In this document: positions 1-54,924 of the stretch, in pieces
Position numbering within the stretch: the stretch's first letter is position 1
Layout: each line of letters opens with the position of its first letter
IMG/VR virus record: IMGVR_UViG_3300042502_001806
DNA length: 55,076 nt
Source: an uncultured virus (IMG/VR IMGVR_UViG_3300042502_001806)
Taxonomy: Duplodnaviria; Heunggongvirae; Uroviricota; Caudoviricetes
Reading direction: 5' to 3' (one strand)
Position numbers and translations under genes: made by a program
The notes under the pieces: model-generated
What the model was told of the DNA's origin: nothing
Databases searched by the model: none
The model's input: only the letters and a program-made list of their open reading frames with translations

Positions 1-1470
1 ACTTATTATTTTAGGAGTATTATCACAATTAACATCACTAACTAAATTAATTGTGTAGTCCTCAGTTTCTCCAAAAGCATAAGATCCACATGATGAAATT
101 GCGTTTTGTGTTTCGTTCACAATAACTCTAACTCCTGTTATACCTGGTTGTGATGTAACTGGAATTTTAATAAAACCTTTTCTGACATTGGCAGTTGGAC
201 CATAAACAACAGGTGATAAATAAATTTGTTCACTACCCTCAAATTCACCATTTCTATTAATATCTATAAAAATAGCGGCACGATTATAAGCACCGTTAGT
301 ACCACATAATGATGTTTCAACAATAAATGGAACACTAGAACCAATTTTAATATCTGTAGGTTTATCATCTCTGTAATTTGAGTATAAAGATTTTTTTGAT
401 CCTTCACCGGGTGCTAAATCACCACAGTCTCCAGCTCTAACTCCAAATATAACACTAGTACCAACACTGGATTTTTTATCTAAATTACCTAATTTGAAAT
501 GTGTTATCTCTTCATCTGTTGGTGATTGAGCCGTACTTGGACAATAACAATTATAAAAAGGATTAATTGGTATTTTTATAATATTTGTATAAGTAACAAG
601 ACTACCACAGCTAACCTTACATCTATAATATGTCTCGGTTGTTTGTGATGTAATTACTGATGAACTATTACCAATAGAAGCGGCATCATTGAAAGATAAA
701 CTATTTGATTTCTGCCAGTCATATGATATACCGCCTTCAGCTATTTTATTAGTCAATGAAAGTGTGAATTGTTGGTTTGGACAAACAACATTATTCGTTG
801 AAACAGCTAAACCTGTATTAGGTAATGTTGAACACATGTTAGGAGCCGTATATGTTATTCTAATTGTTGGTTTTAGAGAACCAGATGTTGGTAGTAGCAA
901 AGCATCTTGTGGTATTAATACTGGACTTGTTACCTGAATAGCTTTACCAACAGAGGCTTTTTGATAGAAAGTTAATGGTCCAACACATGTTCCCACTTTA
1001 GCCCAATCTGTTAGTATAGATAAGCTTCCTCCTTCATAGATAAAACCAGATGAGAATGGACAAGGTATCCAATAGTTTGTTGTAGCTGGGAATTCCATTT
1101 TATCAGTTGAGAAAACTGTTTGTGAGTTTTGTAAAAATTCTGAATAATTAGCAGACGTACCCATTGTTGTTTTAGATGTATTAGAAATAATAACATTGAA
1201 TTTATTATTACCGGTAGCAGTCGCGTTATTTGCTTTTAGCCATTCCACTTTTGTAATGGTTGATCCAGATGGAATGTTTAATTCATCTTTAGTGTAAAGA
1301 TAAGCAGACTTAGAATATTTTGCGGTCTGAGCAGTAACTCTTTGATAGATAGGACCTGTTTGATAGGATGAAGCACCAGAGATTGGCCCAATTGTTACAC
1401 TTTGGGCAAGACAAGTGTTGATAGTTAGTATTGATAGTATCAATACCATAAGTTGTTTAATTTTTCTCAT
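1..1470 (-). CDS. Secreted GEVED-domain protein (probable T9SS cargo), 3' end outside window
   Basis: Not in ORF track. ATG at 1470, frame checked open to position 1. Signal peptide MRKIKQLMVLILSILTINTCLA; GEVED motif SCGSYAFGETEDYTINL near the edge. Confidence 0.8.
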   Translation of the reverse strand, partial: MRKIKQLMVLILSILTINTCLAQSVTIGPISGASSYQTGPIYQRVTAQTAKYSKSAYLYTKDELNIPSGSTITKVEWLKANNATATGNNKFNVIISNTSKTTMGTSANYSEFLQNSQTVFSTDKMEFPATTNYWIPCPFSSGFIYEGGSLSILTDWAKVGTCVGPLTFYQKASVGKAIQVTSPVLIPQDALLLPTSGSLKPTIRITYTAPNMCSTLPNTGLAVSTNNVVCPNQQFTLSLTNKIAEGGISYDWQKSNSLSFNDAASIGNSSSVITSQTTETYYRCKVSCGSLVTYTNIIKIPINPFYNCYCPSTAQSPTDEEITHFKLGNLDKKSSVGTSVIFGVRAGDCGDLAPGEGSKKSLYSNYRDDKPTDIKIGSSVPFIVETSLCGTNGAYNRAAIFIDINRNGEFEGSEQIYLSPVVYGPTANVRKGFIKIPVTSQPGITGVRVIVNETQNAISSCGSYAFGETEDYTINLVSDVNCDNTPKIIS

Positions 1471-3268: not shown

Positions 3269-3670
3269 TTAACTTTGAAAACTGAATTCTACACTATAAG
3301 CGATATAAGGTCCTTCCCTTTCACTATCGTGATCTTCACCGACTTGAACATTTTGTAAATAGAATCCTAAGTCATTAAATCTACCAACAGCCACATTCAT
3401 TTCATCTAAGAAACTTACTAACTCACTATAATTTTTAGATTCATTGAAATCAATTCTAAACTTAAATGCTTTGTTTTTTTGATTAGCATATCTTTGAAGT
3501 CTAAAATTAGATATTGATGTTTTGTCTATATCTGTTGGATAAAAAGCATGACCAGTTGCTGAGAAAATAGTAACATCATATCCTTCATCAATGTAATCTT
3601 GTAGAATATAGATTATATCAATAAGACCAAATTCTTGAGCAGACTCGTTATATGTTTTTAAATACTTCAT
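3269..3670 (-). CDS. Hypothetical protein with N-terminal tag
   Basis: MKYLKTYNES. Confidence 0.8.
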   Translation of the reverse strand: MKYLKTYNESAQEFGLIDIIYILQDYIDEGYDVTIFSATGHAFYPTDIDKTSISNFRLQRYANQKNKAFKFRIDFNESKNYSELVSFLDEMNVAVGRFNDLGFYLQNVQVGEDHDSEREGPYIAYSVEFSFQS

Positions 3671-4260
3671 TAAATCTCATTAAATCTTTTTATCTTGAAT
3701 ATTGAACTTATATTATTAAGTTTCATTTTAATTTGATTAACAAGTAAACCTTGAATACGGTTGAATCTTCTATTCTTTTCTAATTCGTCCATAATTTGAA
3801 CAGTTTCTTGAAAGTATTTATTTCTAAATCTTTCAGAGGCTGTAAAAGCATCAGATATATTTTGTAATCTATCACATAGTTTAATGAATAAGGCTTCATT
3901 AGACATATGAATCATTTTAACAATAAGATAATCGGCTTTGCTATCATAATCATCTTCAATCTCTTCTTTAGAGGAAGTTAGTTCTTGTACGATATCAGCA
4001 ATCTTTTTACCAAACTTACCTTCAATAATATGATAACCTACATCTGGATCCTCAAAACAATCTTCAATTGTATCATGAAGTAAAGCAGCACAAAGGATAT
4101 CTTCATCAGTTGTGTATTGCTTAGCAATTCCATTAACCTTCTGAACGTGTGCCATAAAGTAAGGTTTATTAATAAACTTTCTAACTTGGTCTTTGTGTAA
4201 TTCTTTTGCGAAGTCCCAAGCCTCTTTTTCTTTTGGAGTTAATGGTCTATTTCTTATCAT
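3670..4260 (-). CDS. HD-domain (p)ppGpp hydrolase-like protein (Mesh1/small alarmone hydrolase)
   Basis: AKELHKDQVRK..PYFMAH, AALLHDTIED, IKLCDRLQN match the RelA/SpoT hydrolase domain. Confidence 0.85.
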   Translation of the reverse strand: MIRNRPLTPKEKEAWDFAKELHKDQVRKFINKPYFMAHVQKVNGIAKQYTTDEDILCAALLHDTIEDCFEDPDVGYHIIEGKFGKKIADIVQELTSSKEEIEDDYDSKADYLIVKMIHMSNEALFIKLCDRLQNISDAFTASERFRNKYFQETVQIMDELEKNRRFNRIQGLLVNQIKMKLNNISSIFKIKRFNEI

Positions 4261-4313
4261 ATTTGTATATATTAAATTATTTCCTTAAATTTGTGTTCTT
4301 AAAAACTAAAACT

Positions 4314-4733
4314 ATGATTGACGAAGCTAAAATTAAGAAAGTACAAGATAGAATAAAAGCGGCAATTCTCAAAATTGAAGCAGAAGAAAATGTAAAGATT
4401 GATTTTGGAACTATTAGTTATAATAAAGCTTTTTACACTTCTAAAATGAGTGTTAAGACTTTAGAAAAGACTGAAGCCATTGGTGATGTTTATAAAGCAA
4501 TCTGTCGAAGACTTGGTTTTACCCAAAACATTATAGGTATGAGATTTCATGGCACTAACGGTATCTATGAAATCGTAGATATAAAAACAAAAAACAGAAC
4601 TTATCCAATTATTGCTAAGTCATTAACTGGTGCTAAAATGTACAAGTATTCAGTTAACCAAATAAAATCTTTGATTGGTGGTGATAAGATTATTAATCGA
4701 AATGCCAACTTAGATAAACTTATTGGTGACTGA
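4314..4733 (+). CDS. Hypothetical protein with C-terminal tag
   Basis: Start moved to ATG 4314 (MIDEAK), downstream of TAAATTTG at 4286; ends RNANLDKLIGD. Confidence 0.75.
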   Translation: MIDEAKIKKVQDRIKAAILKIEAEENVKIDFGTISYNKAFYTSKMSVKTLEKTEAIGDVYKAICRRLGFTQNIIGMRFHGTNGIYEIVDIKTKNRTYPIIAKSLTGAKMYKYSVNQIKSLIGGDKIINRNANLDKLIGD

Positions 4734-4736
4734 TTT

Positions 4737-4745
4737 TAATATATA
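4737..4745 (+). promoter_or_regulatory. Putative late promoter TAATATATA (example of ~15 copies)
   Basis: 5 nt upstream of the RNA ligase ATG; recurs at similar spacing before many genes. Confidence 0.65.
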
Positions 4746-4750
4746 AATCA

Positions 4751-6088
4751 ATGAAATTATTTAGATATACAGAATTTATAAAGGAAAGCCTTTCTCAAAA
4801 TACTATTCCAACATATGAACAAGCATTAGAACTTTGTTCTGTTGAGGAAGCGCCATTTTATGAATCTAAGATGGTTGTGGATGGATTTAATGTATCTGTA
4901 TTCAACTATCGTCTTGCTCAATACAAAGACTTTGCTTATCCAATTCCAGATAAGCCAGATTTAAAAGGTTATGAAATGAGAGGTTTAACTTTTATTTTTA
5001 ATGAAGATGGATCACTATTCAATAGATATGTGCTACTTGAAAAGTTTTTTAACTTAAACCAAGTACCAGAATCTTTATACTCAGTTGTTAAGAACTATAA
5101 AATCAAATTTGTGAATAACAAAGAAGATGGTTCTATTGCTTCTTTTGTTAAGTTACCAAACGGTAAGATTGTTGGTAAATCTAAAATGGGATTTGATAAC
5201 GACCAAGCTGATGGTATTAACAGAGTTTATAAAACTAACAAAGAAGTTAAATCTTTAGTTGATTGGGCTTTGAATAATAATATCGTGCCAATTTTTGAAT
5301 ATGTGGCACCAAACAATCGTATTGTTTTAAGATATCCAAGCGAAGAATTAATCTTATTAAGATTAAGAGATAATGTTACTGGTAAACACATTGATATTAG
5401 AGACCACTTAGATAAAGTAGGTTCTATTAGAGTTGCGCCATTTGAAGATGATGTAAGAGACTTAGATCACTTAGTTGAGCTAACTGCTACTCAAGTAGAT
5501 AAAGAAGGCTCTATTGTTACTTGTGAAGATGAACACGGTAGAGATTTCTTCTTTAAGTTGAAGACTCCTTGGTATTGTGAACGTCACGGTTTACTTACTC
5601 AAGACTTATATAGAGAACATATTATTATTGGTTATATCTTAGATGATAAGATAGATGATATCTTAGGTCAGATACCAGAAGATGAAAAAGAAGCACATAT
5701 TAGAATTAATAAAATAATTACTATTGTCAAAAAATCAATTTCTGATAAAGTGTCAGAAATTGAAAGAGTTTACGAACAATTTGTCAAATCTGGAATTTCT
5801 AAAAAAGATTATGCCATAAATCAAAGAAAAGGTAATCCTAACTTTGGTTTTGTAATGAATATGGTTAAAGCCGATGATTTGAAAAAGATGTCTAAAGAAG
5901 AAATTCTTGATATCTATGATAATATGGAAGACTATGAAAAAGCATTACAAAGATGTGAGCCATATGAAATGGCTAAAGGTTGGTTAAGAGATTTAACTAA
6001 GAGATTGAATTTATCAAGAGAATGGTTACAAGCAAAAGATAAAACTTTATTTTTTCAAGATCCAGAAGAAAGTGAAGATGATAATTAA
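4751..6088 (+). CDS. T4 Rnl1-family RNA ligase
   Basis: EKFFNLN, motif I KEDGS, IFEY, KEGSIV, FFKLK; N-terminal tag MKLFRYTEFIKES. Confidence 0.85.
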   Translation: MKLFRYTEFIKESLSQNTIPTYEQALELCSVEEAPFYESKMVVDGFNVSVFNYRLAQYKDFAYPIPDKPDLKGYEMRGLTFIFNEDGSLFNRYVLLEKFFNLNQVPESLYSVVKNYKIKFVNNKEDGSIASFVKLPNGKIVGKSKMGFDNDQADGINRVYKTNKEVKSLVDWALNNNIVPIFEYVAPNNRIVLRYPSEELILLRLRDNVTGKHIDIRDHLDKVGSIRVAPFEDDVRDLDHLVELTATQVDKEGSIVTCEDEHGRDFFFKLKTPWYCERHGLLTQDLYREHIIIGYILDDKIDDILGQIPEDEKEAHIRINKIITIVKKSISDKVSEIERVYEQFVKSGISKKDYAINQRKGNPNFGFVMNMVKADDLKKMSKEEILDIYDNMEDYEKALQRCEPYEMAKGWLRDLTKRLNLSREWLQAKDKTLFFQDPEESEDDN

Positions 6089-6489: not shown

Positions 6490-8376
6490 ATGGCAAAAGA
6501 CGTAATTATTGGAATTGACTTAGGAACTACAAACTCATGTGTTGCTGTAGTTGAAGGTGGTGAACCAATTGTAATCACCAACTCTGAAGGAAAAAGAACA
6601 ACTCCTTCAGTTGTCGGATTTACCGACAACGATAGAAAAATTGGAGACCCTGCTAAACGTCAGGCAGTTACCAATCCAAAAAACACTGTTTACTCTATCA
6701 AGAGATTCATCGGTAAAGACTTTTCAGCTTGTACTGATGAGGTAACGAAAGTTCCTTATCAAGTAGTTAAAGCTGGTAAGAATGTACCTGGTGTTCAAAT
6801 CGGAGATAGAACTTACACACCTCAAGAAATCTCAGCTATGATTCTTCAGAAAATGAAGAAAACTGCTGAAGATTATTTAGGGTATGAAGTAAAAAGAGCT
6901 GTTATTACAGTTCCTGCTTACTTCGGAGACGCTGAAAGAACTGCGACTATTGAAGCTGGTGAAATCGCTGGTTTGAAAGTTGAGCGTATCATCAACGAAC
7001 CAACTGCTGCTGCCTTGGCTTATGGCTTAGACAAAAAGAATACAGATTCTAAAATCTTAGTATTCGACTGTGGTGGTGGTACTCATGATGTATCAGTTCT
7101 AGAAATTGGTGATGGTGTATTTGAAGTTAAATCTACTGATGGTGATACTCACTTAGGTGGCGACGACTTCGATAATGCTATTATCGACTGGATGGTTGAA
7201 GAATTCAAATCTGAACATTCAATGGATCTTTCTAAAGATCCAATGGCTCTTCAACGTTTGAAAGATGCGGCTGAAAAGGCTAAGATTGAATTGTCTTCTA
7301 CTTCTCAATCTGAAATCAACCTTCCTTATATCACTGCTCAAGATGGTATGCCTTTACACTTTGTAAAACAATTAACTAAAGCTAAATTCGATCAAATGAC
7401 TTCAAGTCTTGTTGATAGAGCTATTGCTTGTGCTAAATCTGCTTTGAAAAGTGCTGGGTTAAAACCATCTGACATTGATGAAGTTATTCTTGTTGGTGGT
7501 TCTACAAGAATTCCTTCTATTCAAGAAGCTTTAGAAAAGTTTGTTGGTAAAAAACCAAACAAATCAGTTAACCCTGATGAAGTTGTTGCCTTAGGTGCTG
7601 CTATTCAAGGTGCTGTATTGACTGGTGGTATTACAGACGTTCTTCTTCTTGATGTTACTCCACTATCACTTGGTATTGAGACAATGGGTAGTGTAATGAC
7701 TAAGTTGATTGAAGCAAATACAACAATTCCGACCCGTAAGTCAGAAACGTTTTCAACTGCTGCTGACAATCAACCATCTGTAGAAATTCACGTTCTACAA
7801 GGTGAAAGACCAATGGCTAAGGATAACCGTTCTTTAGGTAGATTCCATCTTGATGGTATCATGCCAGCACCGAGAGGTATTCCTCAAGTAGAGGTAACAT
7901 TAGACATTGATGCTAATGGTATTCTATCTGTATCTGCTAAAGATAAAGCTAGTGGTAAAGAAAACAAAATCCGAATTGAAGGTGGTTCTCAACTATCTAA
8001 AGAGGAAATTGAAAGAATGAAAGCTGAAGCTGAATTAAATGCTGAGTCTGACCGTCTTGAAAGAGAATTGGTTGATAAAGTAAATATGGCTGACAATCTT
8101 ATCTTCCAAACAGAAAAACAAATCAAAGAATTTGCTGATAAGTTAACTGAAGAAGATAAGTCCGCTTTGAACACTGATTTAGAAGAGTTGAAAAAAGCTC
8201 ATTCAACTAAAGATGCTCAAGCAATTGACATAACATCTGAAAAATTGAATAGTACTTGGTCAACAATCTCAACAAGATTGTACCAAGAATCTCAATCAGA
8301 ACCACAAGTTAATACAGATACTGACACTGGTAATGGCGGTGATGTTGAAGACACTTCTTACGAAGAAGTTAAATAA
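6490..8376 (+). CDS. dnaK: Hsp70 chaperone DnaK
   Basis: [33 protein letters not shown]; acidic EEVK C-terminus. Confidence 0.99.
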
Positions 8377-27096: not shown

Positions 27097-27267
27097 ATGA
27101 AGCATTTAAGACCAAGAAAAGAAGATCCATTTAAAGATTTTGCGCCAGTGATGACAAAAGATTGTCAAGGTGTCTGTGATCGTCAAGTTGTAATGACTAA
27201 GGAAGGACCAGTTATTGTTTGTAATGGTTGTATGAGAATTGTAATGGATAATAGAGATAAAAAATGA
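27097..27267 (+). CDS. 56-aa four-Cys (Zn-ribbon-like) protein
   Basis: Not in ORF track; CQGVC..CNGC; TATATTTG at 27085-27092; ATGA overlap with the rhomboid gene. Confidence 0.75.
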   Translation: MKHLRPRKEDPFKDFAPVMTKDCQGVCDRQVVMTKEGPVIVCNGCMRIVMDNRDKK

Positions 27268-27827
27268 TAAATTTAACACCAGTTGTAAAGCAGTTATTAA
27301 AGATTAATGTTATAGCTTTTATTATATCATATCTTTTATTTGAAATGGGATTACCTTTTGTTAGTCAATTTCTATTATATCCAATTCAATCTGAAGAATT
27401 TCACATCTACCAGCTTGTGAGTTATATGTTTTTACATAGCTCACTCATGCATATTATATTCAATATGCTAGGTTTAATAACATTTGGACCAGATATAGAA
27501 GAAAGATTTGGTAGTAAAAAGTTTTTGAACTATTATTTAATAATGGGAATAGTATCTGGTTTATGTCATGCTTTATTTATAAGTAATCCAGTTTTAGGCG
27601 CATCAGGTGCTGTTTGGGGAGTTATGATGATATATGCTTTATCTAATCCAAATACAATTCTACATCTTTACTTTTTAATTCCGGTTAAAGTTAAATATAT
27701 TGTTGGTGTGTTTTTTACCATAGAGTTATACTTAGCACTTATAGGTGGTAGTGATGGTGTGAGTCATATTGCTCATGTTGGAGGTGCTTTAACTGGTCTT
27801 TTAATTTATTTGCTCAATAGAAAGTAG
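27264..27827 (+). CDS. Rhomboid intramembrane serine protease
   Basis: FLH...HIIFNM, GASG, AHVGG; multiple TM segments. Confidence 0.93.
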   Translation: MINLTPVVKQLLKINVIAFIISYLLFEMGLPFVSQFLLYPIQSEEFHIYQLVSYMFLHSSLMHIIFNMLGLITFGPDIEERFGSKKFLNYYLIMGIVSGLCHALFISNPVLGASGAVWGVMMIYALSNPNTILHLYFLIPVKVKYIVGVFFTIELYLALIGGSDGVSHIAHVGGALTGLLIYLLNRK

Positions 27828-27986
27828 CCTTTGCTCATCCATTGTAAATAAATTATAACTTTAGATAAATCTTTATTTATAACTTGATATATATATTATA
27901 TGTTATCTGGGCTAATATTCTAACATAATTTTTGTTAGTCACCCAATTTGAGATAACTTTTGTTTTGAAAAATTTTATTTTATTTT

Positions 27987-30197
27987 ATGAGAAAATTGCT
28001 AACTATGTTATTTTCTGTGATTAGTTTATTTGCTATTTCACAGAACTGTCCTGAATTAGGACCAAATCAGATTTTACCTTGTGGTGTAAATACTGCTATA
28101 TTGACTGCTAACCTAACCGCTTGTGGTGCTGGTACAAATCCAAATCAAACAACTAACTATTCTGTTGCTTCTATTCCTTATGTTGCTCAAACAAATACGG
28201 GAACTCAGTTATTTATGACTGATGATTCACAACAAGGACCTTTTAATATAGGTTTTAACTTTTGTTTCTTTGGTACAACATACACTCAATTTTATATAGG
28301 TTCAAATGGTTGGATATCTTTCTCACCCGCACAACCAACAACATTTAGTTCTCAACTAATACCAACTATCAATCCTTTAGTTCCAAAGAACTGTATTATG
28401 GGTCCTTGGCAAGATTGGCATCCAGGTTTAGGAGGTCAAATTAGATATCAAACGTCTGGTGTTGCTCCTTGTAGAAAACTAACAGTTAGTTGGATTGGGG
28501 TTCCAATGTTCTCTTGTACAGGTAATCAAGGAACATTTCATATAGTTATTTATGAATCTAGTAATAATATTGAAAATCATATTCAAAATAAACCGGCTTG
28601 TTTAGGTTGGCAAGGTGGTACTGCTGTTGAAGGTATACATAACTTAGCGGGTACAATAGGAATTCCAGTACCTGGTAGAAATTCAACTGCTTGGGTTGCT
28701 AATAATGATGCTTGGAAATGGACACCTAGTGGACCAGTAGTTACACCTGTATTAACTTGGTATCAAGTTGGTAATCCAGTTGCTATTGGAACAGGTCCTA
28801 CTATAACTGTAAATCCATTAGTACCAACACAATATACTTGTCATTTTGTTTACCCTATTTGTAATGCGGGTTGGACTTCTTGTAATGCTGGTATTGCTGG
28901 ACCTGGACCAGATACTGTTTTAGTTGTGCCAGGTCCACCTAACATTCTTCTTAATACTTCATTTACCGAACCACTTTGTTTTAATGATTGTAATGGGACA
29001 GCAACTGTTACTCCAATAACAGGAACACCACTATATAATTATTTATGGTCAAATGGTCAAACAACTCAAACTGCTACTAGTTTATGTGCTGGTGTTTATA
29101 GTGTAAATGTAACTGATATAAACGGATGTTCAGCAAATACCACTGTTAATATAACTCAACCAACACAATTGATTTTTGATAGTTTAGTTTTATCTGATGT
29201 TACTTGCTCATTAAATGATGGACAAATTTTTATTTATCCAAATGGTGGAACACCAACATATGATTATTTTATAGATGGTTTAATATCAAATGATACAATT
29301 ACTAATCTTTCTGGTGGTAACTATACAGTTTCTGTAACAGATAATAATGGTTGTACTATAGACTCAATCGTTTTTATTGATTTTCCAACACCTATAAATA
29401 TTTCAGTATCACCGGTTGATACAATTCTTTGTGTTCCAGGTATATTTAACTTTATTAATAACTCTACACCTACTGTTAATATTGTTAGTTCAATAGTAGA
29501 TTATGGTGATGGATTTACTGATAATATATTATCAAATTCCAACTTTACACATACTTATAGTACAGTTGGTATTTGGGATGTTATAGTAACAACGGTTAAT
29601 GATTATGGATGTACATACACACAAACATTTAACAATATAGTAGAAACCGTTTCATTGCCAGTTTCTCAGTTTATGGTTGGACCAAACCCAACAACAATGT
29701 TTGAGACAACTGTTTCTACATTTGATTATTCAGGTCCTAATATTGTGGCTTGGAATTGGTCAGCACCAGGATCTTTAGAACTAACTAGTGGTCTTTCTAA
29801 TCCAAATTTCACATACCCTGAAGGAATTATAGGTCAGTATTTAATTACTCTAACAGTTCAAAATAGCTTAGGTTGTAGTGATTCATCTTCTGTTGTTTTA
29901 ATTGTTAATCCAGATGTATTAACTTATATACCTAATGCTTTCACTCCGGGTGGTGATGAATTCAATTCAACTTGGAAATTCTACTTATCAGGTGTTGATG
30001 AGCAAGATTTCACTATGTCTATATTCAATAGATGGGGTCAAATGATATGGGAATGTCATGATATAAATGGTGAGTGGGATGGATCTTATAATGGGTATTA
30101 TGTTCCAGATGGTTGTTATTTTTGGAAATCTCAGTTTACGGTTTTAAACTCTTCAGAGAAAAGAACTGTTATGGGTTATGTAACTATTATCAGATAA
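27987..30197 (+). CDS. Secreted SprB-repeat/PKD protein with T9SS type B (gliding-motility-associated) C-terminal domain
   Basis: Signal peptide; YLWSNG..L.AG.Y.V.VTD.NGC repeats; IPNAFTP.GD..N..IFNRWG..WDG. Confidence 0.88.
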   Translation: MRKLLTMLFSVISLFAISQNCPELGPNQILPCGVNTAILTANLTACGAGTNPNQTTNYSVASIPYVAQTNTGTQLFMTDDSQQGPFNIGFNFCFFGTTYTQFYIGSNGWISFSPAQPTTFSSQLIPTINPLVPKNCIMGPWQDWHPGLGGQIRYQTSGVAPCRKLTVSWIGVPMFSCTGNQGTFHIVIYESSNNIENHIQNKPACLGWQGGTAVEGIHNLAGTIGIPVPGRNSTAWVANNDAWKWTPSGPVVTPVLTWYQVGNPVAIGTGPTITVNPLVPTQYTCHFVYPICNAGWTSCNAGIAGPGPDTVLVVPGPPNILLNTSFTEPLCFNDCNGTATVTPITGTPLYNYLWSNGQTTQTATSLCAGVYSVNVTDINGCSANTTVNITQPTQLIFDSLVLSDVTCSLNDGQIFIYPNGGTPTYDYFIDGLISNDTITNLSGGNYTVSVTDNNGCTIDSIVFIDFPTPINISVSPVDTILCVPGIFNFINNSTPTVNIVSSIVDYGDGFTDNILSNSNFTHTYSTVGIWDVIVTTVNDYGCTYTQTFNNIVETVSLPVSQFMVGPNPTTMFETTVSTFDYSGPNIVAWNWSAPGSLELTSGLSNPNFTYPEGIIGQYLITLTVQNSLGCSDSSSVVLIVNPDVLTYIPNAFTPGGDEFNSTWKFYLSGVDEQDFTMSIFNRWGQMIWECHDINGEWDGSYNGYYVPDGCYFWKSQFTVLNSSEKRTVMGYVTIIR

Positions 30198-33412: not shown

Positions 33413-33877
33413 ATGGTGTCTTTGAATAAAGAATATAATCAAATTGTGAACCTTACTAAATTCAATGTGAATTTTAGTAAGTTTATTCATAATAATGACT
33501 TATTGAGTCATAGTCCAGACTATATTCTTGAAAAATATAATCATTGGATTGGATTTGAACCAACTATTGAGTGTAAATTATATACACCAGATGATATGAC
33601 TGATTTTTTTCTTAAATATTGGAAAAGATGGGGTATATTTGAAGAATATTCTGTGAAAAATATTTTGATGTATCTTTACTCAACTAGAAGTATGAATCTA
33701 GTATTAATGTCTGAGAAGTTTGAAGAGTATATCGGGTCAATGAATATGATATCAGATATACCAGATAAAAAAGGACTACATCATCTAACAGAAAGATTTG
33801 TTGGTGAAGTTTTAGAAAAGAATAAAGACAATGTAAAAGTTGTTTTAAGAGATATGAAAATTGGAAGTATAATATAA
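33413..33877 (+). CDS. Hypothetical protein with C-terminal tag
   Basis: TATATTTG at 33401; ends RDMKIGSII. Confidence 0.75.
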   Translation: MVSLNKEYNQIVNLTKFNVNFSKFIHNNDLLSHSPDYILEKYNHWIGFEPTIECKLYTPDDMTDFFLKYWKRWGIFEEYSVKNILMYLYSTRSMNLVLMSEKFEEYIGSMNMISDIPDKKGLHHLTERFVGEVLEKNKDNVKVVLRDMKIGSII

Positions 33878-34111
33878 GTCAGAGAAGCTATCGCTGGTAG
33901 AAATACTAGAGAAACTTCGACACTACAGAACCTAACACGGGAGAATAAGTAAAGAAATTGAAAGTTCGTTTGTACCGAGGAAGTAGCAACACATACAGAC
34001 TTAGGGTATCGGTTCCCCTTTGATGGTCGGGTTGTGGCAGTCCTTCGGGACCACTGAAAGGTGAGATAAATGATAGCTTAAAGCAAAATGTCGGGTACGC
34101 TCAACTTATAT
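33872..34111 (+). ncRNA. rnpB: Compact RNase P RNA (bacterial A-type catalytic domain, reduced S-domain)
   Basis: P1 ATATAAGT..GAG/CTC.ACTTATAT; P2 AGCTATC/GATAGCT; P3 CTGGTA-GAAA-TACTAG; P4 AC(T)TCGACA/TGTCGGGT with bulged U; P5 CTAC/GTAG followed by CAA; P15 CACA/TGTG with adjacent GGU; AGATAAATGA before the P2 3' strand. Confidence 0.88.
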
Positions 34112-34155
34112 AACTTTCAATTATAAAATAGTAACAAATAAAAAATAAAATAAAT

Positions 34156-34620
34156 ATGAAAATGATTAAATTTTTGATGTTGGCTCTTGTAGCAACAATG
34201 TTCTTAACTTCTTGTACTGAGAACTATTCTAATGGTGAACGTATTGGTATGATTACTAAATTCTCACAAAAAGGTCTTGTTTGGAACTCTTGGGAAGGCT
34301 CACTAAACACAACACAAACTGGTATGAATAGTGCCACTCCTTTTGAGTTCTCAGTTGATAATGATGTGAATGATGCTAAAGTTATCTCTACTTTAGATTC
34401 AGCGGCTACTGAAGGATGGAAAGTTAAAATTAAATATCACGAAACATTTGGTAAGAACTGGCTTTCTAATAGAGGTGAAACTAATTACTTTGTTAAAGAA
34501 GTAGAAGTTTTAGATAGAGACCCAATGGGTAGCGTATTTGGTAACTCAAATAATACAGGTGGTAAAGTTGTTGACACAATCTATGTGGTAATCGTTCCAA
34601 AAGAAAAAGTAATTAAATAA
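34156..34620 (+). CDS. Lipoprotein
   Basis: Lipobox LTSC; YSNGERIG..KFSQKG..WEG. Confidence 0.8.
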   Translation: MKMIKFLMLALVATMFLTSCTENYSNGERIGMITKFSQKGLVWNSWEGSLNTTQTGMNSATPFEFSVDNDVNDAKVISTLDSAATEGWKVKIKYHETFGKNWLSNRGETNYFVKEVEVLDRDPMGSVFGNSNNTGGKVVDTIYVVIVPKEKVIK

Positions 34621-35315: not shown

Positions 35316-36131
35316 ATGGAAATTAATGCTATTCATCAAGGTGATTCTTTGGAGTTACTAAAAAAAATACCAGACAACTCTGTTGACTTGGTAATAACAT
35401 CACCACCATATGCCGACTTAAAAGTTTACATAGATAATGGTGGAATCTTAGCCAAAGATTATGTCAATTGGTTTATACCTTATTGTAAGGAAATAGAAAG
35501 AGTTCTTAAACCAACAGGGTCTTTCATCTTAAACATCAATGATAAAGTAGAGAATGGTTTTAGACATCCTTATGTCTTTGACTTAATATCAGAACTACAT
35601 AAACAAACAGGTCTAAAAATGTTTGAGAGATTGTTCTGGAATAAATTAAAAAGTCTTCCTAACAGAGCCAGATTTGGTGATAGAGTAGAATACTTATTTT
35701 GGTTCGCTAAAGAAAAAGGATTCAAGTTTAATCTTGATGAAATGAGAACTGAGTATTCTGAGAAGTCTATTAAAAGAATGACTAAACCTCTAAAGAAAAG
35801 ATTTGCCAGAACTGAAGGTGATGATAATTTAGAGTATAAAGATTGGGCTCCAAATCCAAAAGGTGCTTTACCAACTACATTAGTAAACATTTCATCTGAA
35901 TCAAAAAGAATTGCTGATAATCACGTTGCTGTTTTTCCGGTTGATCTTATTGAATACTTTATTAAAGGAGCTACAGATAAAGGTGACTTAGTTCTAGATA
36001 TTTTTATGGGTACTGGTACAACTGCTGTTGCTGCTAAGAAGTTAGGTAGAAATTACATGGGATTTGAATTACAACAAGATTATATCGATGTTGCGAATAT
36101 AAGAATTGGAGATTATGTTGAGAATAACTAA
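35316..36131 (+). CDS. DNA amino-methyltransferase, beta class (N4-C/N6-A)
   Basis: TSPPY precedes VLDIFMGTGTT; H.AVFP. Confidence 0.93.
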   Translation: MEINAIHQGDSLELLKKIPDNSVDLVITSPPYADLKVYIDNGGILAKDYVNWFIPYCKEIERVLKPTGSFILNINDKVENGFRHPYVFDLISELHKQTGLKMFERLFWNKLKSLPNRARFGDRVEYLFWFAKEKGFKFNLDEMRTEYSEKSIKRMTKPLKKRFARTEGDDNLEYKDWAPNPKGALPTTLVNISSESKRIADNHVAVFPVDLIEYFIKGATDKGDLVLDIFMGTGTTAVAAKKLGRNYMGFELQQDYIDVANIRIGDYVENN

Positions 36132-36408
36132 AAATACAAATAAGATTGTTTCTATACAACTTTGTACAAAGGAAGTAGTGGATCCATCATATAAAAATCC
36201 TGAATTGGATAGTTTTGTTATCATACCGGGTGTGACTCAATATAATCATATTTATTCAACTGGTAATTGGTTAGTATTTGATAGTCACGATAGTTACATT
36301 GGAGTTCAATTCTCAAATGAGTCAGATTTAGATAGATTCTTTACTATGTTGATGAGAGAGATAAAATTAAATCAACTTATAAATGTTGAATCGAAAGGAA
36401 AAAATTAG
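36115..36408 (+). CDS. Hypothetical protein with C-terminal tag
   Basis: ATG 36115; REIKLNQLI; TAG stop. Confidence 0.7.
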   Translation: MLRITKNTNKIVSIQLCTKEVVDPSYKNPELDSFVIIPGVTQYNHIYSTGNWLVFDSHDSYIGVQFSNESDLDRFFTMLMREIKLNQLINVESKGKN

Positions 36409-43182: not shown

Positions 43183-43746
43183 ATGAAAGTAATATTTTTG
43201 GATAATGATGGTGTTGTTTGTTTATCTACCGAATGGGGTGGACGAAGCAAAAAGAAATCTAAGTACTTAAAGGAATTTCCTGGTACTGAAAGTTCTTTGC
43301 CTGCTTGGATAAAAATGGATAACTTTAATGATAAGGCTGTTAAGATTCTTAATTCAATCTTATTAGAAACTGATGCTGAAATTGTTGTTAGTTCTGATTG
43401 GAAGTTGTATTGTACTTTAGATGAACTAAAAGAAATGTTTACTAAGTATGGTGTTGTTAAACAACCAATTGATACTACACCTAATATTCCTTTAAAGTAT
43501 GATAAAAGTTATTACACTACTGGAGAATTGGCTGAGTATAGAATAAGTGAAGTTAATAAGTGGTTAAAAGAACATCCAGAAGTAACTCAGTGGGTTGCTG
43601 TTGATGATTTACCTTTAGGTGAAGTATATGGGCCAATCTCTGGTAACTTTCTTGGTGGTTTGAAGAACTTTGTCTTAACACCAAAGAGTTCTGAAGGTAT
43701 TAAACAAAGTGGTATTAAAGAAAAAATATTAAAATTCTTACTGTGA
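43183..43746 (+). CDS. HAD-family phosphatase (Swiss-Army-knife RNA-repair type)
   Basis: IFLDNDGV, IVVSSDW, R..E...WL, WVAVDD. Confidence 0.85.
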   Translation: MKVIFLDNDGVVCLSTEWGGRSKKKSKYLKEFPGTESSLPAWIKMDNFNDKAVKILNSILLETDAEIVVSSDWKLYCTLDELKEMFTKYGVVKQPIDTTPNIPLKYDKSYYTTGELAEYRISEVNKWLKEHPEVTQWVAVDDLPLGEVYGPISGNFLGGLKNFVLTPKSSEGIKQSGIKEKILKFLL

Positions 43747-50093: not shown

Positions 50094-51263
50094 ATGAAAT
50101 TAAAAAGATACACACAATTTTTAGAATCTAAATCTGATATGTGGGATATCATTCCACAATCAGTAAAAGAGTTACATACTTTATTTCAATCAGCTGGTAA
50201 GAAACTTTACTTAGTTGGTGGTTCAGTGCGTGACTTCTTAACAGGAGATAAACCAAAAGATTTTGACTTAGCAACCGATGCTCTTCCAGATGAAGTTTTG
50301 GAAATTGTCGGAGATAAATTTAGAACTAACCTTCAAGGTAAAGCCTTCGGAGTTGTTGTGGTTTACACTAAAGAAGTTCCAGAAGGAATGGAAATTGCTA
50401 CATTCAGAGAAGATGTTTCAAAAGGTCGTAACCCAGAAGTTAAATTGGGTGTTACTATTGAAGATGATGTTAAGCGTAGAGACTTAACTTACAACTCTCT
50501 TTTCTATGATTTAGATACAAGACAAATCGTTGACTTAGTTGGTGGTAAAGAAGATTTACAATCTGGTATTACGAGAATGGTTGGTGATCCTATTGAAAGA
50601 TTTGATGAAGATTCATTAAGAATTTTAAGAGCATTTAGATTTGCTTCAAGATATGAACATCCTTTACATAAAGATACTGAAAGTGCTATTGAGAAAAGAA
50701 AGCAACTTCAAAACATTGATCTAGAGACTGGTGAAATGAAAAGAATTTCTCAAGAAAGAGTTTGGGAAGAAATGAAGAAAGCTTGGAAACAAGCCAAAGA
50801 TTACAGATACTACTTATCATTCTTTACTAAGTTTGATATGTGGGATGAAGTATTTCCTGTTGCTAACATCAATACTAATTTAGTTGATTCAAAAGACTTT
50901 ATAGTTGTTGTTGCTAACTTATTTAAGAACGAATCCACTTTAGGTTTGGCTGATAAACTTGCTCAAGAATATAAGATTGAGTTAGAAACCGCTACTAAAG
51001 TAACTTTCTTAATTTCTTTATTATCTTTCAAAGTAGAAGATGTATTTGATATTTACAAGAAAAGACAACAATGTGCTATCACTGATGCTACTATTTTAGA
51101 GTGGTTAAAAGTCGAAGGTATTGATACTGATACTTTAGTTAAGTTTGTTGAATACAAACCAAGTGTATCTGCTCAAGAACTTATGTCTCAAGGATTCAAG
51201 GGTAAAGATCTTGGTGATGAAATCAAAAGATTAGAGATAGAAAAATTTAAACAAATGCTATGA
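50094..51263 (+). CDS. CCA-adding tRNA nucleotidyltransferase (class II)
   Basis: LVGGSVRD, DFDLAT, EIATFR, RRDLTYN, EDSLRILRAFRF, ERV..E; N-tag MKLKRYTQFLES. CCA versus poly(A) activity not resolved. Confidence 0.88.
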   Translation: MKLKRYTQFLESKSDMWDIIPQSVKELHTLFQSAGKKLYLVGGSVRDFLTGDKPKDFDLATDALPDEVLEIVGDKFRTNLQGKAFGVVVVYTKEVPEGMEIATFREDVSKGRNPEVKLGVTIEDDVKRRDLTYNSLFYDLDTRQIVDLVGGKEDLQSGITRMVGDPIERFDEDSLRILRAFRFASRYEHPLHKDTESAIEKRKQLQNIDLETGEMKRISQERVWEEMKKAWKQAKDYRYYLSFFTKFDMWDEVFPVANINTNLVDSKDFIVVVANLFKNESTLGLADKLAQEYKIELETATKVTFLISLLSFKVEDVFDIYKKRQQCAITDATILEWLKVEGIDTDTLVKFVEYKPSVSAQELMSQGFKGKDLGDEIKRLEIEKFKQML

Positions 51264-51724
51264 CACATAAATTAACTTATTTAAAAGATGCGGTTGGGAA
51301 TAATTATGTTGGAATTAATATTCCAAATGAAGTTGTCGAACCACATTTAGAAAAACTAAAAGAAATTTTAGGTGAAGAAGATTTTGAAATCTTTACACAA
51401 AATCAAAAGACGAGAGATCACGGACACTATCACATTACTGTTATTAATGTAATGGATTGTAACCGACTTTCTAAAGAAATGGGAATGGCTAACTTTGTTA
51501 AATCAGTTGAATTAGCATTTGATTATCCGGTAGAAGATTTAGAACTATTAGGTGTTGGTATGGCTTCTAAGAATACCAATACCGCTTACTTTATAGTTTG
51601 CTCATCTGATAGTTTAGATGCTGTTAGAACTCGTTTTAACTTACCTAAACAAGACTTTCATGTTACACTTGGTTTCAACACTAAAGATGTATTTGGTGTT
51701 CCAAAAAATGTTTTGATAGATTAA
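51260..51724 (+). CDS. 2H phosphoesterase
   Basis: Two HxT motifs: HITV and HVTLGF. Confidence 0.85.
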   Translation: MTHKLTYLKDAVGNNYVGINIPNEVVEPHLEKLKEILGEEDFEIFTQNQKTRDHGHYHITVINVMDCNRLSKEMGMANFVKSVELAFDYPVEDLELLGVGMASKNTNTAYFIVCSSDSLDAVRTRFNLPKQDFHVTLGFNTKDVFGVPKNVLID

Positions 51725-52110: not shown

Positions 52111-54924
52111 TTAGAATGTATATTTAACTGAGGCTGATATTGTTTGACCAAAGTTTATGTTTTGCCAATTGTTATCACCTTTATCATACTTTTGATTACC
52201 GTTCAAGTCTTGGAAGTAAACTAAGTCTTGAGCTAAGATATCTTTTATATTAAGTTTTGTTTCAAAGTGTTTACCAAACTTTTTAGATACTTGAAAGTCA
52301 ATAACATTTCTTCCATTTTCCCAAACTGAAGGCTCCTGAACATTACCTACAATATAAATTCTTTGACCAATTACATTATAAGATAAAGTTACTGTCATAT
52401 CTTTCTTAGGTGTATTATAGAATATACCTGAGTTGATAATGTAAGGTGACTGACCTTGTAGTGGTCTGTTCTCACCAGAACCAACGAAGTGACTCATATC
52501 AACTGTTGACTTGATTAGAGACAAGTTTGAATAAAGAGTTATGTTATCCCATAATTTACTTTCCTTCTTACAGAATGTTCCTAAGTTATATCTAATTTCA
52601 AATTCAGCTCCAATATTTGTCACCTTATTTACATTAGCGTAGTAAAGTTCAGGTGCTCCTGATGTGCCAGTTCTATTGATTAACTCAATTGGATTCTCAA
52701 ATGTTTTATAGAAACCAGATACAGATATGATTTGACCTTTACCAGGATACATTTCCCATCTAACATCAAAGTTATCTATAGTTGCTCTTTTTAAGTTAGG
52801 ATTACCACTTACTATATTATCAATAACAAAGTTATAGAAACTAAATGGTGCTAACTCTCTAAACTCTGGACGAGAAACTGTTCTATAATAAGAACCTCTT
52901 ACTTTCATCTTTTTGTTTAACGAATAAACTATATTAACTGATGGTAAGAAATCAACAACTGTTGTATCAATATGTTTATGTTCGTTAGAACCAAACTCGA
53001 TATAATTAAATTGTTGGTTATATGATTCCATTCTTAAACCACCAATGATTCTAAAATTCTCACCAATCTTTGTATCAGTCATTGCGAAAGCCGCATTTAG
53101 GAAAGAGTTAGCTTGATAACTATCATCAACATTTGTAGCTTCATCTAATTTGAAACCACCTTGACCATTTGATAAAAGACCCATATTTTGTTGTGAGAAT
53201 ATTTCATCTGGTCCTAATAGAAGTAAGTTACTATTGAATGTGCTACCTGTTGGTTTGTATTGAGAGAATCCTAAGTTTCTTGATAAAAAGTCGCGAGTTC
53301 TATATTGATGCCATCCACCGACTTTGAATTCATTTTCTACTTTACCAAACTTAACTGGAATAGTCCAGTCGTAGTTAGCACTGTATATTTTCTCAGATGA
53401 TTTAGACCAAAACATATTACCAGCCGCAGTTGGAATAGTTCCGTTTTGTTGAATAATAGCAGTCCATTGTTCTGTTGTATCATTTTCAAGTAAAGAATAC
53501 TTACGATAAACTAATCTTCTAAGATTTGGAATATCTCTTTTAACATCACTGAAACCAACATTCCAGTTTAATTTAGTTTTCTTAATCTCATGAGTTCCGT
53601 ATAACTGTTGAGTTAATAGATTATTCTGTGTATACCAGAAGTTTGTTGATCTTTCCCATTGACGAGGATCATTATCCATCTCTCTAACTCCTTTTCTGAC
53701 GTTTACTTTATCTTCTGAATTAATAGAATAAAGATTTTTGAATCTGATAATATTCTTATCATTTATTTGATAAGCAAAGTTTAACATAGCACTGTTCAAA
53801 ATAGTTTGAGTAAACACAGAATCTTTTAACTCCATTTTTAGAACAACACCGTCAGCTTGTTCTTCAAATTCTCTTCTAACCGAATTGTTCATAGTAGAAG
53901 CATTTTGATAACTATAAGCGAAAGTTATACCAAGTGAGTTATCTTTTTTAAATTTGATATATCTACCTACTGAATATTGTAAGCTACCAATTGGTAAAGC
54001 TATTCTTGATCTAGTTGACCAAGAAGTGTTTATCATTTTTGACAAGTCTGCTTTCTCTGCCTTATTCAGAGTAGAGAAGTCTAAAGTACTTGGTATTGAA
54101 CTAGGTAAACTTCTATAATTAGAGCCAAATCCTAAAAAGTCTGTAGAACTTCCTTGATAAGTTTTGAAGTTTTGAAATGTAGATATAGTATTGAATCCTA
54201 AGCCAAATTGGATATTTTGAAACTTAGAATCTTTTGGTTCTGATGTACTGATATTAATAACACCACCTGCGAACTCACCAGGCATATCTGGAGAACCCGA
54301 CTTCATAACAATTAGATTGTCCAACATATTAGAAGGAAAGATATCAAATGAGAAAGCTTTTCTATCTGATTCAGAACTTGGAAGTGGAGAACCATTTATT
54401 AGAGCGAAGTTGTATCTATCGTTTAGACCACGAATAACTACAAACTTATTATCTTGAACAGAAGCACCACTCACTCTTTTGAACACATCAGATACTTTCG
54501 TATCTGGTGTTTTCTTAAAAGTCTCAGCATTAACACCATCTTGAACGACAGCACTGTTGCTTTGTTGTCTAACTAATTCGGTTGTTGATTCTTTATTAAC
54601 TTTAGCTCTAACAGTAACAGTTCCTATTTCTAAAGTTTTTTCTTTCAGCTTTATATTCAAAGTGTCTTTTGATGTCGCTTTAATGAATTGTGAATGATAA
54701 CCAATATACCTAACTTCTAAAGTGTAAGTAGGTTTATCTAAATTTTTTAATTCAAATTTACCATTTATGTCAGTTATGGCTCCTTTACCGGTTTCACCTT
54801 GGATTAGTACCATAGCGCCAATAACTGGCTCGTTTGAAATCGAGTCAGTTATTGTGCCTGATATTTGTGAAAATGCTGCTAGTGTCGATATTAAGAATGT
54901 AAATATCAGTAGTAATTTTTTCAT
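52111..54924 (-). CDS. TonB-dependent outer-membrane receptor (Bacteroidetes type)
   Basis: Signal peptide; carboxypeptidase-regulatory-like N-domain; plug IRGL.DRY..GGVINI; GNPNL; C-terminal YTF. Confidence 0.93.
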   Translation of the reverse strand: MKKLLLIFTFLISTLAAFSQISGTITDSISNEPVIGAMVLIQGETGKGAITDINGKFELKNLDKPTYTLEVRYIGYHSQFIKATSKDTLNIKLKEKTLEIGTVTVRAKVNKESTTELVRQQSNSAVVQDGVNAETFKKTPDTKVSDVFKRVSGASVQDNKFVVIRGLNDRYNFALINGSPLPSSESDRKAFSFDIFPSNMLDNLIVMKSGSPDMPGEFAGGVINISTSEPKDSKFQNIQFGLGFNTISTFQNFKTYQGSSTDFLGFGSNYRSLPSSIPSTLDFSTLNKAEKADLSKMINTSWSTRSRIALPIGSLQYSVGRYIKFKKDNSLGITFAYSYQNASTMNNSVRREFEEQADGVVLKMELKDSVFTQTILNSAMLNFAYQINDKNIIRFKNLYSINSEDKVNVRKGVREMDNDPRQWERSTNFWYTQNNLLTQQLYGTHEIKKTKLNWNVGFSDVKRDIPNLRRLVYRKYSLLENDTTEQWTAIIQQNGTIPTAAGNMFWSKSSEKIYSANYDWTIPVKFGKVENEFKVGGWHQYRTRDFLSRNLGFSQYKPTGSTFNSNLLLLGPDEIFSQQNMGLLSNGQGGFKLDEATNVDDSYQANSFLNAAFAMTDTKIGENFRIIGGLRMESYNQQFNYIEFGSNEHKHIDTTVVDFLPSVNIVYSLNKKMKVRGSYYRTVSRPEFRELAPFSFYNFVIDNIVSGNPNLKRATIDNFDVRWEMYPGKGQIISVSGFYKTFENPIELINRTGTSGAPELYYANVNKVTNIGAEFEIRYNLGTFCKKESKLWDNITLYSNLSLIKSTVDMSHFVGSGENRPLQGQSPYIINSGIFYNTPKKDMTVTLSYNVIGQRIYIVGNVQEPSVWENGRNVIDFQVSKKFGKHFETKLNIKDILAQDLVYFQDLNGNQKYDKGDNNWQNINFGQTISASVKYTF

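Follow-up and report, generated by a model that had tools for sequence, protein, structure and literature searches.

An RNA gene of giant phages that is an RNase P RNA homologue reduced to the catalytic domain

To our knowledge, the RNA subunit of RNase P is regarded as a strictly cellular gene. Here we describe a 240-nucleotide (nt) RNA gene in a 55,076-nt stretch of DNA from an uncultured virus of the Caudoviricetes (IMG/VR record IMGVR_UViG_3300042502_001806; the whole stretch is called the window below) and set it beside three systems already described: the type A RNase P RNA of bacteria (RF00010; the rnpB product, M1 RNA), the minimal RNase P RNA of Pyrobaculum, for which we take type T and RF02357 to be other labels, and catalytic domains (C-domains) engineered from bacterial RNAs. 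In the available sections of two RNase P reviews, type A RNAs are 340-420 nt long and the Pyrobaculum RNA (type P) is described as missing nearly its whole specificity domain (S-domain) (PMC4919922), and bacterial C-domains from which the S-domain is missing cut pre-tRNA whether or not the protein is present, but bind more weakly (PMC11143913). Those sections mention phages only as sources of tRNA or regulatory-RNA substrates (PMC11143913, PMC4919922). A full-text literature search, with subscription journals outside its coverage, turned up no description of an RNase P RNA encoded by a phage or other virus.

The RNA gene occupies positions 33872-34111 of the window (+ strand, which is also that of the two ORFs flanking it and of the tRNA nucleotidyltransferase gene described below), from the 5' strand to the 3' strand of P1, the helix names being those that we presume to apply to it. 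Sequence comparison confirms it as an RNase P RNA homologue of bacterial type A style, cut down to the catalytic domain, which by the same comparison is kept whole: P1-P5, the P4 pseudoknot with its bulged U, J5/15, P15-P17 with GGU, J18/2 and J2/4. The homology had been proposed in an earlier note on this DNA and is borne out by a motif order and spacing that match RF00010 and by full-length, sub-threshold matches of relatives to RF00373 (RNaseP_arch). With type A RNA the phage RNA has in common P1-P2-P3 and the P2/P4 pseudoknot, the 13 nt between P3 and P5, the place of the bulged U, P5, the GCAA of J5/15, P15-P16-P17 with CGGGU, the placement of a candidate P6 and the AGAU.AAUG of J18/2, as well as, in relatives only, the ACAGAA of J2/4 and RnpA as a putative protein partner. 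Unlike type A RNA it measures 240 nt, outside the range quoted above (PMC4919922), lacks P8-P14 and the T-loop binding site, has no P18 in 21 of the 28 variants, carries a P4 whose sequence is rewritten yet paired, scores below the Rfam gathering thresholds and is encoded by a virus. The Pyrobaculum-type RNA resembles it in being natural and in keeping the catalytic domain with the S-domain nearly gone (PMC4919922), but is archaeal and cellular and has archaeal proteins, whereas in the phage RNA the P15-P17/P6 arm, GGU included, is of the bacterial kind, as is the RnpA of relatives; the Pyrobaculum-type family is absent from the Rfam matches (best per clan) listed at E<=10 or E<=1. Engineered C-domain-only RNAs retain the same parts as the phage RNA (PMC11143913), but they are laboratory deletions, whereas the phage RNA is a natural, conserved gene with a structured S-domain stub.

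The reference for the motifs was a set of named bacterial rnpB genes that we fetched, together with the RF00010 consensus and its structure; E. coli numbering is taken from PMC11143913. The interval from P3 to P5 is exactly 13 nt, with U eighth, in RF00010 (AGGAAAGUCCGGg), in the window (J3/4 plus the P4 5' strand, AGAAACUUCGACA, 33910-33922) and in relatives (AGGAAGUUCGCGA). P5 (CUAC/GUAG, 33923-33926/33983-33986) occupies the place of CucC/GgaG in RF00010, and J5/15 (CAA, 33987-33989) belongs to a GCAA that aligns to the GCAA of both RF00373 and RF00010 and stands at the position of E. coli A248; over longer runs, GUAGCAA-CACA and UCGGGU-UGUG align to the GgaGCAA-ggcc and cCGGGUa-ggcc of RF00010. 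The internal loop between P15 and P16 holds GGGU (34029-34032) directly before the P15 3' strand, in a UCGGGUU that is invariant in 28/28 rows of the larger alignment described below, and its GGU (34030-34032) has the position of E. coli G292 G293 U294. J18/2 (AGAUAAAU, 34064-34071) aligns to the uAGAugAAUG of RF00010 and RF00373, AGAUAAAUG before the P2 3' strand corresponding to RF00010 AGAugAAUG; MAFFT, which gave a sensible alignment with three bacterial rnpB genes in the 3' third only, also places J18/2 opposite their equivalent. At 34080-34096, J2/4 (AAAGCAAAA) and the P4 3' strand (UGUCGGGU) can be compared with the RF00010 consensus, which reads aACAGAACCCGGCUUA where relatives have AACAGAAUCGCGGCUA, and Mariprofundus rnpB has ACAAAA in J2/4; the core closes with ACAGAA (GCAAAA in the window, ACAGAA or ACAGGA in relatives), the 8-nt P4 3' strand and an A. 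The letters of P4 are unlike the RF00010 consensus (AAAGUCCGG/CCCGGCUU) both in the window (AACUUCGACA/UGUCGGGU) and in relatives (AAGUUCGCGA/UCGCGGCU), with pairing kept. Three of the elements concerned have described roles in catalysis or substrate contact: U69, the bulged base, is a ligand of catalytic metal and also contacts the acceptor stem, A248 forms a stack with the first base pair of the tRNA, and G292-G293-U294 pair with the tRNA 3' end (PMC11143913).

Homologues can be aligned with the window RNA over its full length, at both ends, with 69-97.5% identity across 28 variants, and are 213-244 nt long against 240 nt in the window. A distant BLAST search of phage records gave LR745206, a 634,780-bp record named 'uncultured phage' (73% identity), and scans for sequence patterns located the RNA in 8 viral contigs, which range in length from 4 to 483 kb. 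The pattern GGTTCNNCTNTNATNNTCGGG hit 21 viral loci, made up of the 8 members already known, one new divergent member (L015) and 12 others, none of which is matched by the family model R1 (0/12), and the metagenome pattern hit 31 loci, of which 25 are true and 6 (L039, L044, L048, L060, L066 and L069) unrelated. R1 has a single strong match in the 55-kb window, at 33869-34112 (261.4 bits, + strand). There is one copy of the RNA in each of the genomes G002 and G003 and one in the window, and the single copy per genome, together with recurrence in 25/31 metagenome loci and 8 viral contigs, argues for selection on the RNA. The same gene order around it is seen across strains from many samples.

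The window RNA is confirmed as a conserved structured RNA, with pairing beyond what chance gives. The structure tested was a single pseudoknotted model comprising the helices of the earlier note plus P1, a P7-like stem, P16, P17 and two hairpins at the P18 position. It was scored on two alignments: A5, a MAFFT alignment of 25 distinct full-length RNAs from which the truncated L041 and L055 were left out, and A6, whose 28 rows are the A5 set plus the divergent L015 and the two truncated RNAs, fitted to model R1, in which P4 and P6 are absent. In A6, 96.5% of 1569 cells are paired, against 32-41% with the partners slid, and compensatory (both-side) changes occur in 25/64 pairs, against 2-3 with slid partners; the observed values were reached by 0/500 shuffles. 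The corresponding figures for A5 are 96.2% of 1456 cells, against 33-40% with partners slid by 1-3 columns, and both-side changes in 13/65 pairs, against 0-2, with four of the five measures reached by 0/500 shuffles and the fifth (further pair types) by 62/500.

At the level of single helices, the nested P1, P2 and P3 and the P4 pseudoknot that crosses P2 have 89-100% of their cells paired (A6). P1 (33872-33879/34104-34111) shows both-side changes in 6/8 pairs and 99.1% of cells paired (A6); P2 (33885-33892/34072-34079) shows them in 4/8 pairs, 33886/34078 being a standard pair in only 5/27 rows; and the P3 hairpin (33894-33899/33904-33909) closes a GAAA loop (33900-33903) with its 5 outer pairs 100% paired. 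P4 (33914-33922/34089-34096), from which U33917 is bulged, has both-side changes in 4/8 pairs although it was outside the covariance model, and the bulged U is invariant in 27/27 rows. Fully pairing P4 strands come in seven distinct combinations, in RNAs whose identity is otherwise 83-98%; examples are ACUUCGACA/UGUCGGGU (window), AGUUCGCGA/UCGCGGCU, AGUUCACGA/UCGUGGCU, ACCUCGACA/UGUUGGGU and AGUUCAUGA/UCAUGGCU. P5 and the P6 pseudoknot (GAACC/GGUUC, 33928-33932/34011-34015, the second strand lying in the P17 loop) are complementary and invariant in 27/27 rows, and because their 4 and 5 pairs never vary, covariation neither supports nor contradicts them; the site of P6, between P5 and P7 and facing the P17 loop, we take to be the P6 position of type A. 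The P15-P16-P17 arm (33990-34036) consists of P15 (33990-33993/34033-34036), P16 (33998-34001/34025-34028) and P17 (34003-34006/34016-34019), each with both-side changes in 2/4 pairs and 99-100% of cells paired (A6). All the helices that the earlier note had named (P2, P3, P4, P5, P15 and a candidate P6) are thus present in the sequence where it had placed them, and its description of P4 as non-canonical but compensated agrees with the both-side changes; of the covariation that it had expected among homologues in P2, P4 and P5, the first two helices provide a signal and the invariant P5 none.

The S-domain is represented by a stub (33936-33979) in which a P7-like stem (33936-33940/33975-33979; both-side changes in 3/5 pairs, A6) surrounds one A-rich hairpin (33943-33967), whose pair 33946/33964 is U:G, C:G or U:A among homologues. 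The earlier estimate of about 55 nt between the P5 strands, with the S-domain mostly gone, is matched by a count of 56 nt, against about 160 model positions in RF00010, where P7-P14 and the T-loop binding site lie. Variation among the homologues is modular: the P3 loop is GAAA or GUAA and an additional CCCGAAAGGG hairpin is inserted in 6 relatives; the inner hairpin of the stub has three swappable forms, of which the A-rich one is seen in 19 rows, one with a UUCG cap in 7 and one of 13 nt in L015; and two small hairpins at the P18 position (34040-34063, a UUCG loop followed by a GAAA loop) are found in 7/28 rows, with one compensatory and two one-sided changes in L015. Modular differences of this kind are the pattern of structured RNAs, and the hairpins that act as replacements show conservation of their own.

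Five related contigs of 313-635 kb bear the RNA. We take them to be huge phages, not cells, because Terminase_6N is found in 4/5, 16S rRNA in 0/5 and a canonical rnpB in 0/3 (RF00010 search of G002, G003 and LR745206); Terminase_6C was found in 0/5. RnpA (PF00825), which the earlier note had not foreseen, is over the cut-off in 3/5 of these contigs, in open reading frames (ORFs) of 99-115 aa with KKFKRAVDRNRIKRLM; the ORF of G002 (L037 1498-1797) can be aligned almost end to end with RnpA chains of solved structure (E 3e-4), AV.RNRIKRL being part of the aligned sequence, and has no PHROG family. The contigs have 59, 41, 61, 4 and 6 tRNA matches, and 57 kb of arrays from two relatives hold 78 tRNAs found by ARAGORN, with spacers that are often 3-10 nt. 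As observations in their own right, 15/78 of these array genes are 81-88 nt long and have a long variable arm (L126 1873-2139 of G002; L127, L129), carry anticodons of amino acids whose tRNAs are normally short-armed (Lys, Glu, Asn, Ile, Thr, Met, Gln) and usually stand beside a normal copy of 72-75 nt, and one Leu(taa) tRNA, with 74 nt, is a short one; the RnpA genes of G002 and G004 each adjoin the gene for a 252-aa ClpP-like protease (L037 1498-2634, L038 653-1806).

A number of results count against the identification of the RNA as a working RNase P subunit. Rfam 15 gave no match at gathering in the whole window and, at E<=10 over 601 nt around the RNA, no RNase P family, only chance snoRNA matches; the RF00010 search of G002, G003 and LR745206 (0/3) tells the same way. 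Full-length, sub-gathering matches to RF00373 were obtained for 6/20 relatives' loci (E 2e-5 to 3e-3), namely L006 (1/4 loci; model positions 1-288, 28.2 bits, E 2.3e-5) and L056, L042, L040, L046 and L053 (5/16 loci; 23-27.4 bits, E 1e-4 to 3e-3), with scores of 23-28 bits that lie far under the 84-bit gathering score, and they are restricted to relatives with a second, more canonical version of P4, the window-type L064 and L052 having none. The Rfam search that had been put forward as a check hence comes out negative for the window and positive, below gathering, for those six loci, and the expectation that the gene would be missed by standard annotation proved right for the window; RNAs of this class escape standard Rfam annotation. 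The reverse test is weak: of 54 bacterial rnpB loci, R1 picked out a single one, L106, with a match placed at the rnpB site (13.3 bits, E 0.11) that we do not count as support, and blastn-short against the same loci gave only 10-12-mers (E 0.5-7). An 11-mer common to window 33958-33979 and Paraprevotella rnpB (L086 586-610; E about 2) was rejected as a sign of Bacteroidota origin and taken as chance, because its site in Paraprevotella is P5'-J5/15-P15, which is non-homologous to the S-domain stub.

To the same side belong features of the RNA and of its genomes. The P4/J3/4 region reads AGAAACUU in the window against AGGAAAGU in RF00010, at positions called well conserved (PMC11143913), and the S-domain lacks its T-loop binding site. 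In 2/5 relatives the search for RnpA gave nothing, and the 55-kb window has neither RnpA nor, by ARAGORN, a tRNA gene; G004 and G005 carry the RNA, and G004 also RnpA, yet they are the contigs with only 4 and 6 tRNA matches. CCA is encoded in only 5/78 array tRNA genes, so that 73/78 are CCA-less though GGU is invariant. One metagenome RNA, L045 311-531 (minus strand), is a mosaic of a window-type 5' half (P2, P4) and an other-type 3' half that breaks three P4 pairs and one P2 pair; the contig is labelled low coverage and may be a chimeric assembly. Finally, the RNA gene is covered by contigs of 4/4 metatranscriptome libraries (3 studies; Logan assembled contigs, in which stretches without cover carry no meaning), but RNA libraries can contain DNA and the flanks are covered too in two of the four runs, so that this cover indicates presence only, with strand, ends and level not derivable from it.

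On balance the RNA probably serves as the catalytic subunit of an RNase P that the phage encodes. The mini RNA would pair with phage RnpA or host RnpA and cut the 5' leaders off phage pre-tRNAs, holding its substrate via the acceptor stem, a contact between RnpA and the leader, and GGU paired to the 3' end of the tRNA, while the customary contact to the T-loop would be missing; the phage would thereby have its own supply of tRNA processing during infection. Cleavage without reading of the T-loop is plausible because C-domains alone cleave (PMC11143913) and the Pyrobaculum RNA is S-domain-less (PMC4919922). The conjunction of an invariant GGU with mostly CCA-less tRNA genes would mean either that CCA is added before 5' cleavage or that GGU serves another contact; in T4, RNase P prefers CCA on CCA-less dimeric precursors (PMC11143913). 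That the RNA is tuned to atypical phage tRNAs, as the earlier note had ventured, is speculative. We also advance, tentatively and with appreciable doubt, a more specific proposal: giant phages may possess an RNase P made up of the mini RNA and phage RnpA, separate from that of the host, for their packed, mostly CCA-less tRNAs, some of which have a long variable arm, and the elbow of the substrate would not be read, leaving the supposedly universal letters of P4 free to change between close strains. If this were true, pairing and the bulged U, rather than base identities, would be what catalysis needs, and the seven P4 sequences, all pairing, constitute a natural experiment on this helix. A virus with both RNase P subunits would lengthen the list of translation-related functions of giant phages, and the RNA would offer a natural minimal bacterial-type RNase P for studying substrate recognition without the S-domain.

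Departures from the RNase P consensus invite other explanations. P4 and J3/4 letters that are off consensus at well-conserved positions, the missing S-domain and the lack of any Rfam score for the window copy would suit a non-catalytic look-alike that keeps the RnpA-binding face and, by sequestering host RnpA as a decoy or by binding precursors of tRNA, stops or redirects host tRNA maturation. We hold this to be unlikely: not only the protein-contacting parts but also the contacts to substrate and metal (the bulged U, the A of J5/15, GGU and J18/2) are invariant or compensated, a decoy for host RnpA would not need the phages' own RnpA, which is present in relatives, and C-domains alone are active (PMC11143913). 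The T-loop-reading domain might also have been lost owing to a new substrate, if an RNase P-derived ribozyme had been retargeted to phage polycistronic mRNAs, tmRNA or tRNA-like elements. Bacterial RNase P also cuts non-tRNA substrates (PMC4919922), two RNA-bearing relatives have only 4-6 tRNA matches and the RNA gene of the window lies outside any tRNA array; yet GGU, the partner of the tRNA 3' end, is invariant, 3/5 relatives have 41-61 tRNA matches and no candidate for an alternative substrate was found, which makes retargeting improbable in our view. Chance resemblance to RNase P in an unrelated structured RNA, or the decay of a host rnpB that had been captured, would account for the absence of an Rfam match in the window, the sub-threshold scores of relatives and the weak reciprocal model search, but sits badly with compensatory change in 25/64 pairs, with a gene order that recurs across strains from many samples, with replacement hairpins that are conserved, with a motif spacing that fits RF00010 at every position and with the co-occurrence of RnpA; its probability seems to us very small indeed. 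A catalytic, phage-encoded RNase P RNA is the reading that we prefer.

The RNA gene sits in a 278-nt gap (33878-34155) that has no ORF of at least 30 aa on either strand. The 240 nt had been described as free of ORFs, which holds for 33878-34111; the first 6 nt, in the P1 5' strand, cover the final 6 nt of the upstream ORF (33413-33877; 154 aa; no Pfam or PHROG family), whose stop codon overlaps P1 and which is the sole ORF overlapped. In most relatives the 3' end of this ORF stands before the RNA. The downstream border of the gap is a lipoprotein-like ORF (34156-34620). G+C is 47-49% at the RNA gene against 25-30% in its surroundings. The single-sequence minimum free energy is no better than that of shuffles (z -0.09 on the + strand, -0.21 on the - strand), which is uninformative, a poor z being expected because the core of the RNA is a pseudoknot, and no promoter or terminator signal stands out, a scan having given 7 sites where 7.4 are expected and 0 terminators. 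The gene is positioned away from any tRNA gene in the window. No PHROG family was matched by any of the six ORFs closest to the RNA gene or by ORF 36106-36405.

Elsewhere the window encodes a tRNA nucleotidyltransferase of the CCA-adding type (50094-51263; Pfam PolyA_pol 4.2e-30, PHROG 2244 3.1e-59), one member of an RNA-repair and tRNA tool kit (3670-6088, 43183-43746, 50094-51724) that also includes an HD-domain protein, an Rnl1-type RNA ligase and HAD and 2H 'Swiss Army Knife' RNA-repair domains. Cell-like genes (6490-8376, 27264-30197, 52111-54924) specify a full-length DnaK/Hsp70 (E 7.7e-250), a rhomboid protease, an SprB/PKD-repeat protein with a T9SS CHU_C sorting signal and a SusC-like TonB-dependent receptor, and the T9SS CHU_C and SusC-like genes suggest that the host belongs to the Bacteroidota. 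In the 1145-nt metagenome contig L058, both P4 versions of the RNA lie in tandem (53-271 and 481-724, minus strand), and the 66-aa ORF between them ends in a repeat of the C-terminus of the upstream ORF; the tandem is either a real duplication or a mixed-strain assembly artefact. A 1.3-kb stretch is near-complete in 14 lake-water DNA runs, one of them possibly the source run. On the 3' side of the RNA (34112-34160 in the window and its equivalent elsewhere) the gene varies by strain: it is the lipoprotein-like ORF in the window, an ORF beginning MEQKLK in G001, L056 and L068, and one beginning MAIRKGDKL in L041 and L046, a pattern that suggests frequent exchange of genes at this site.

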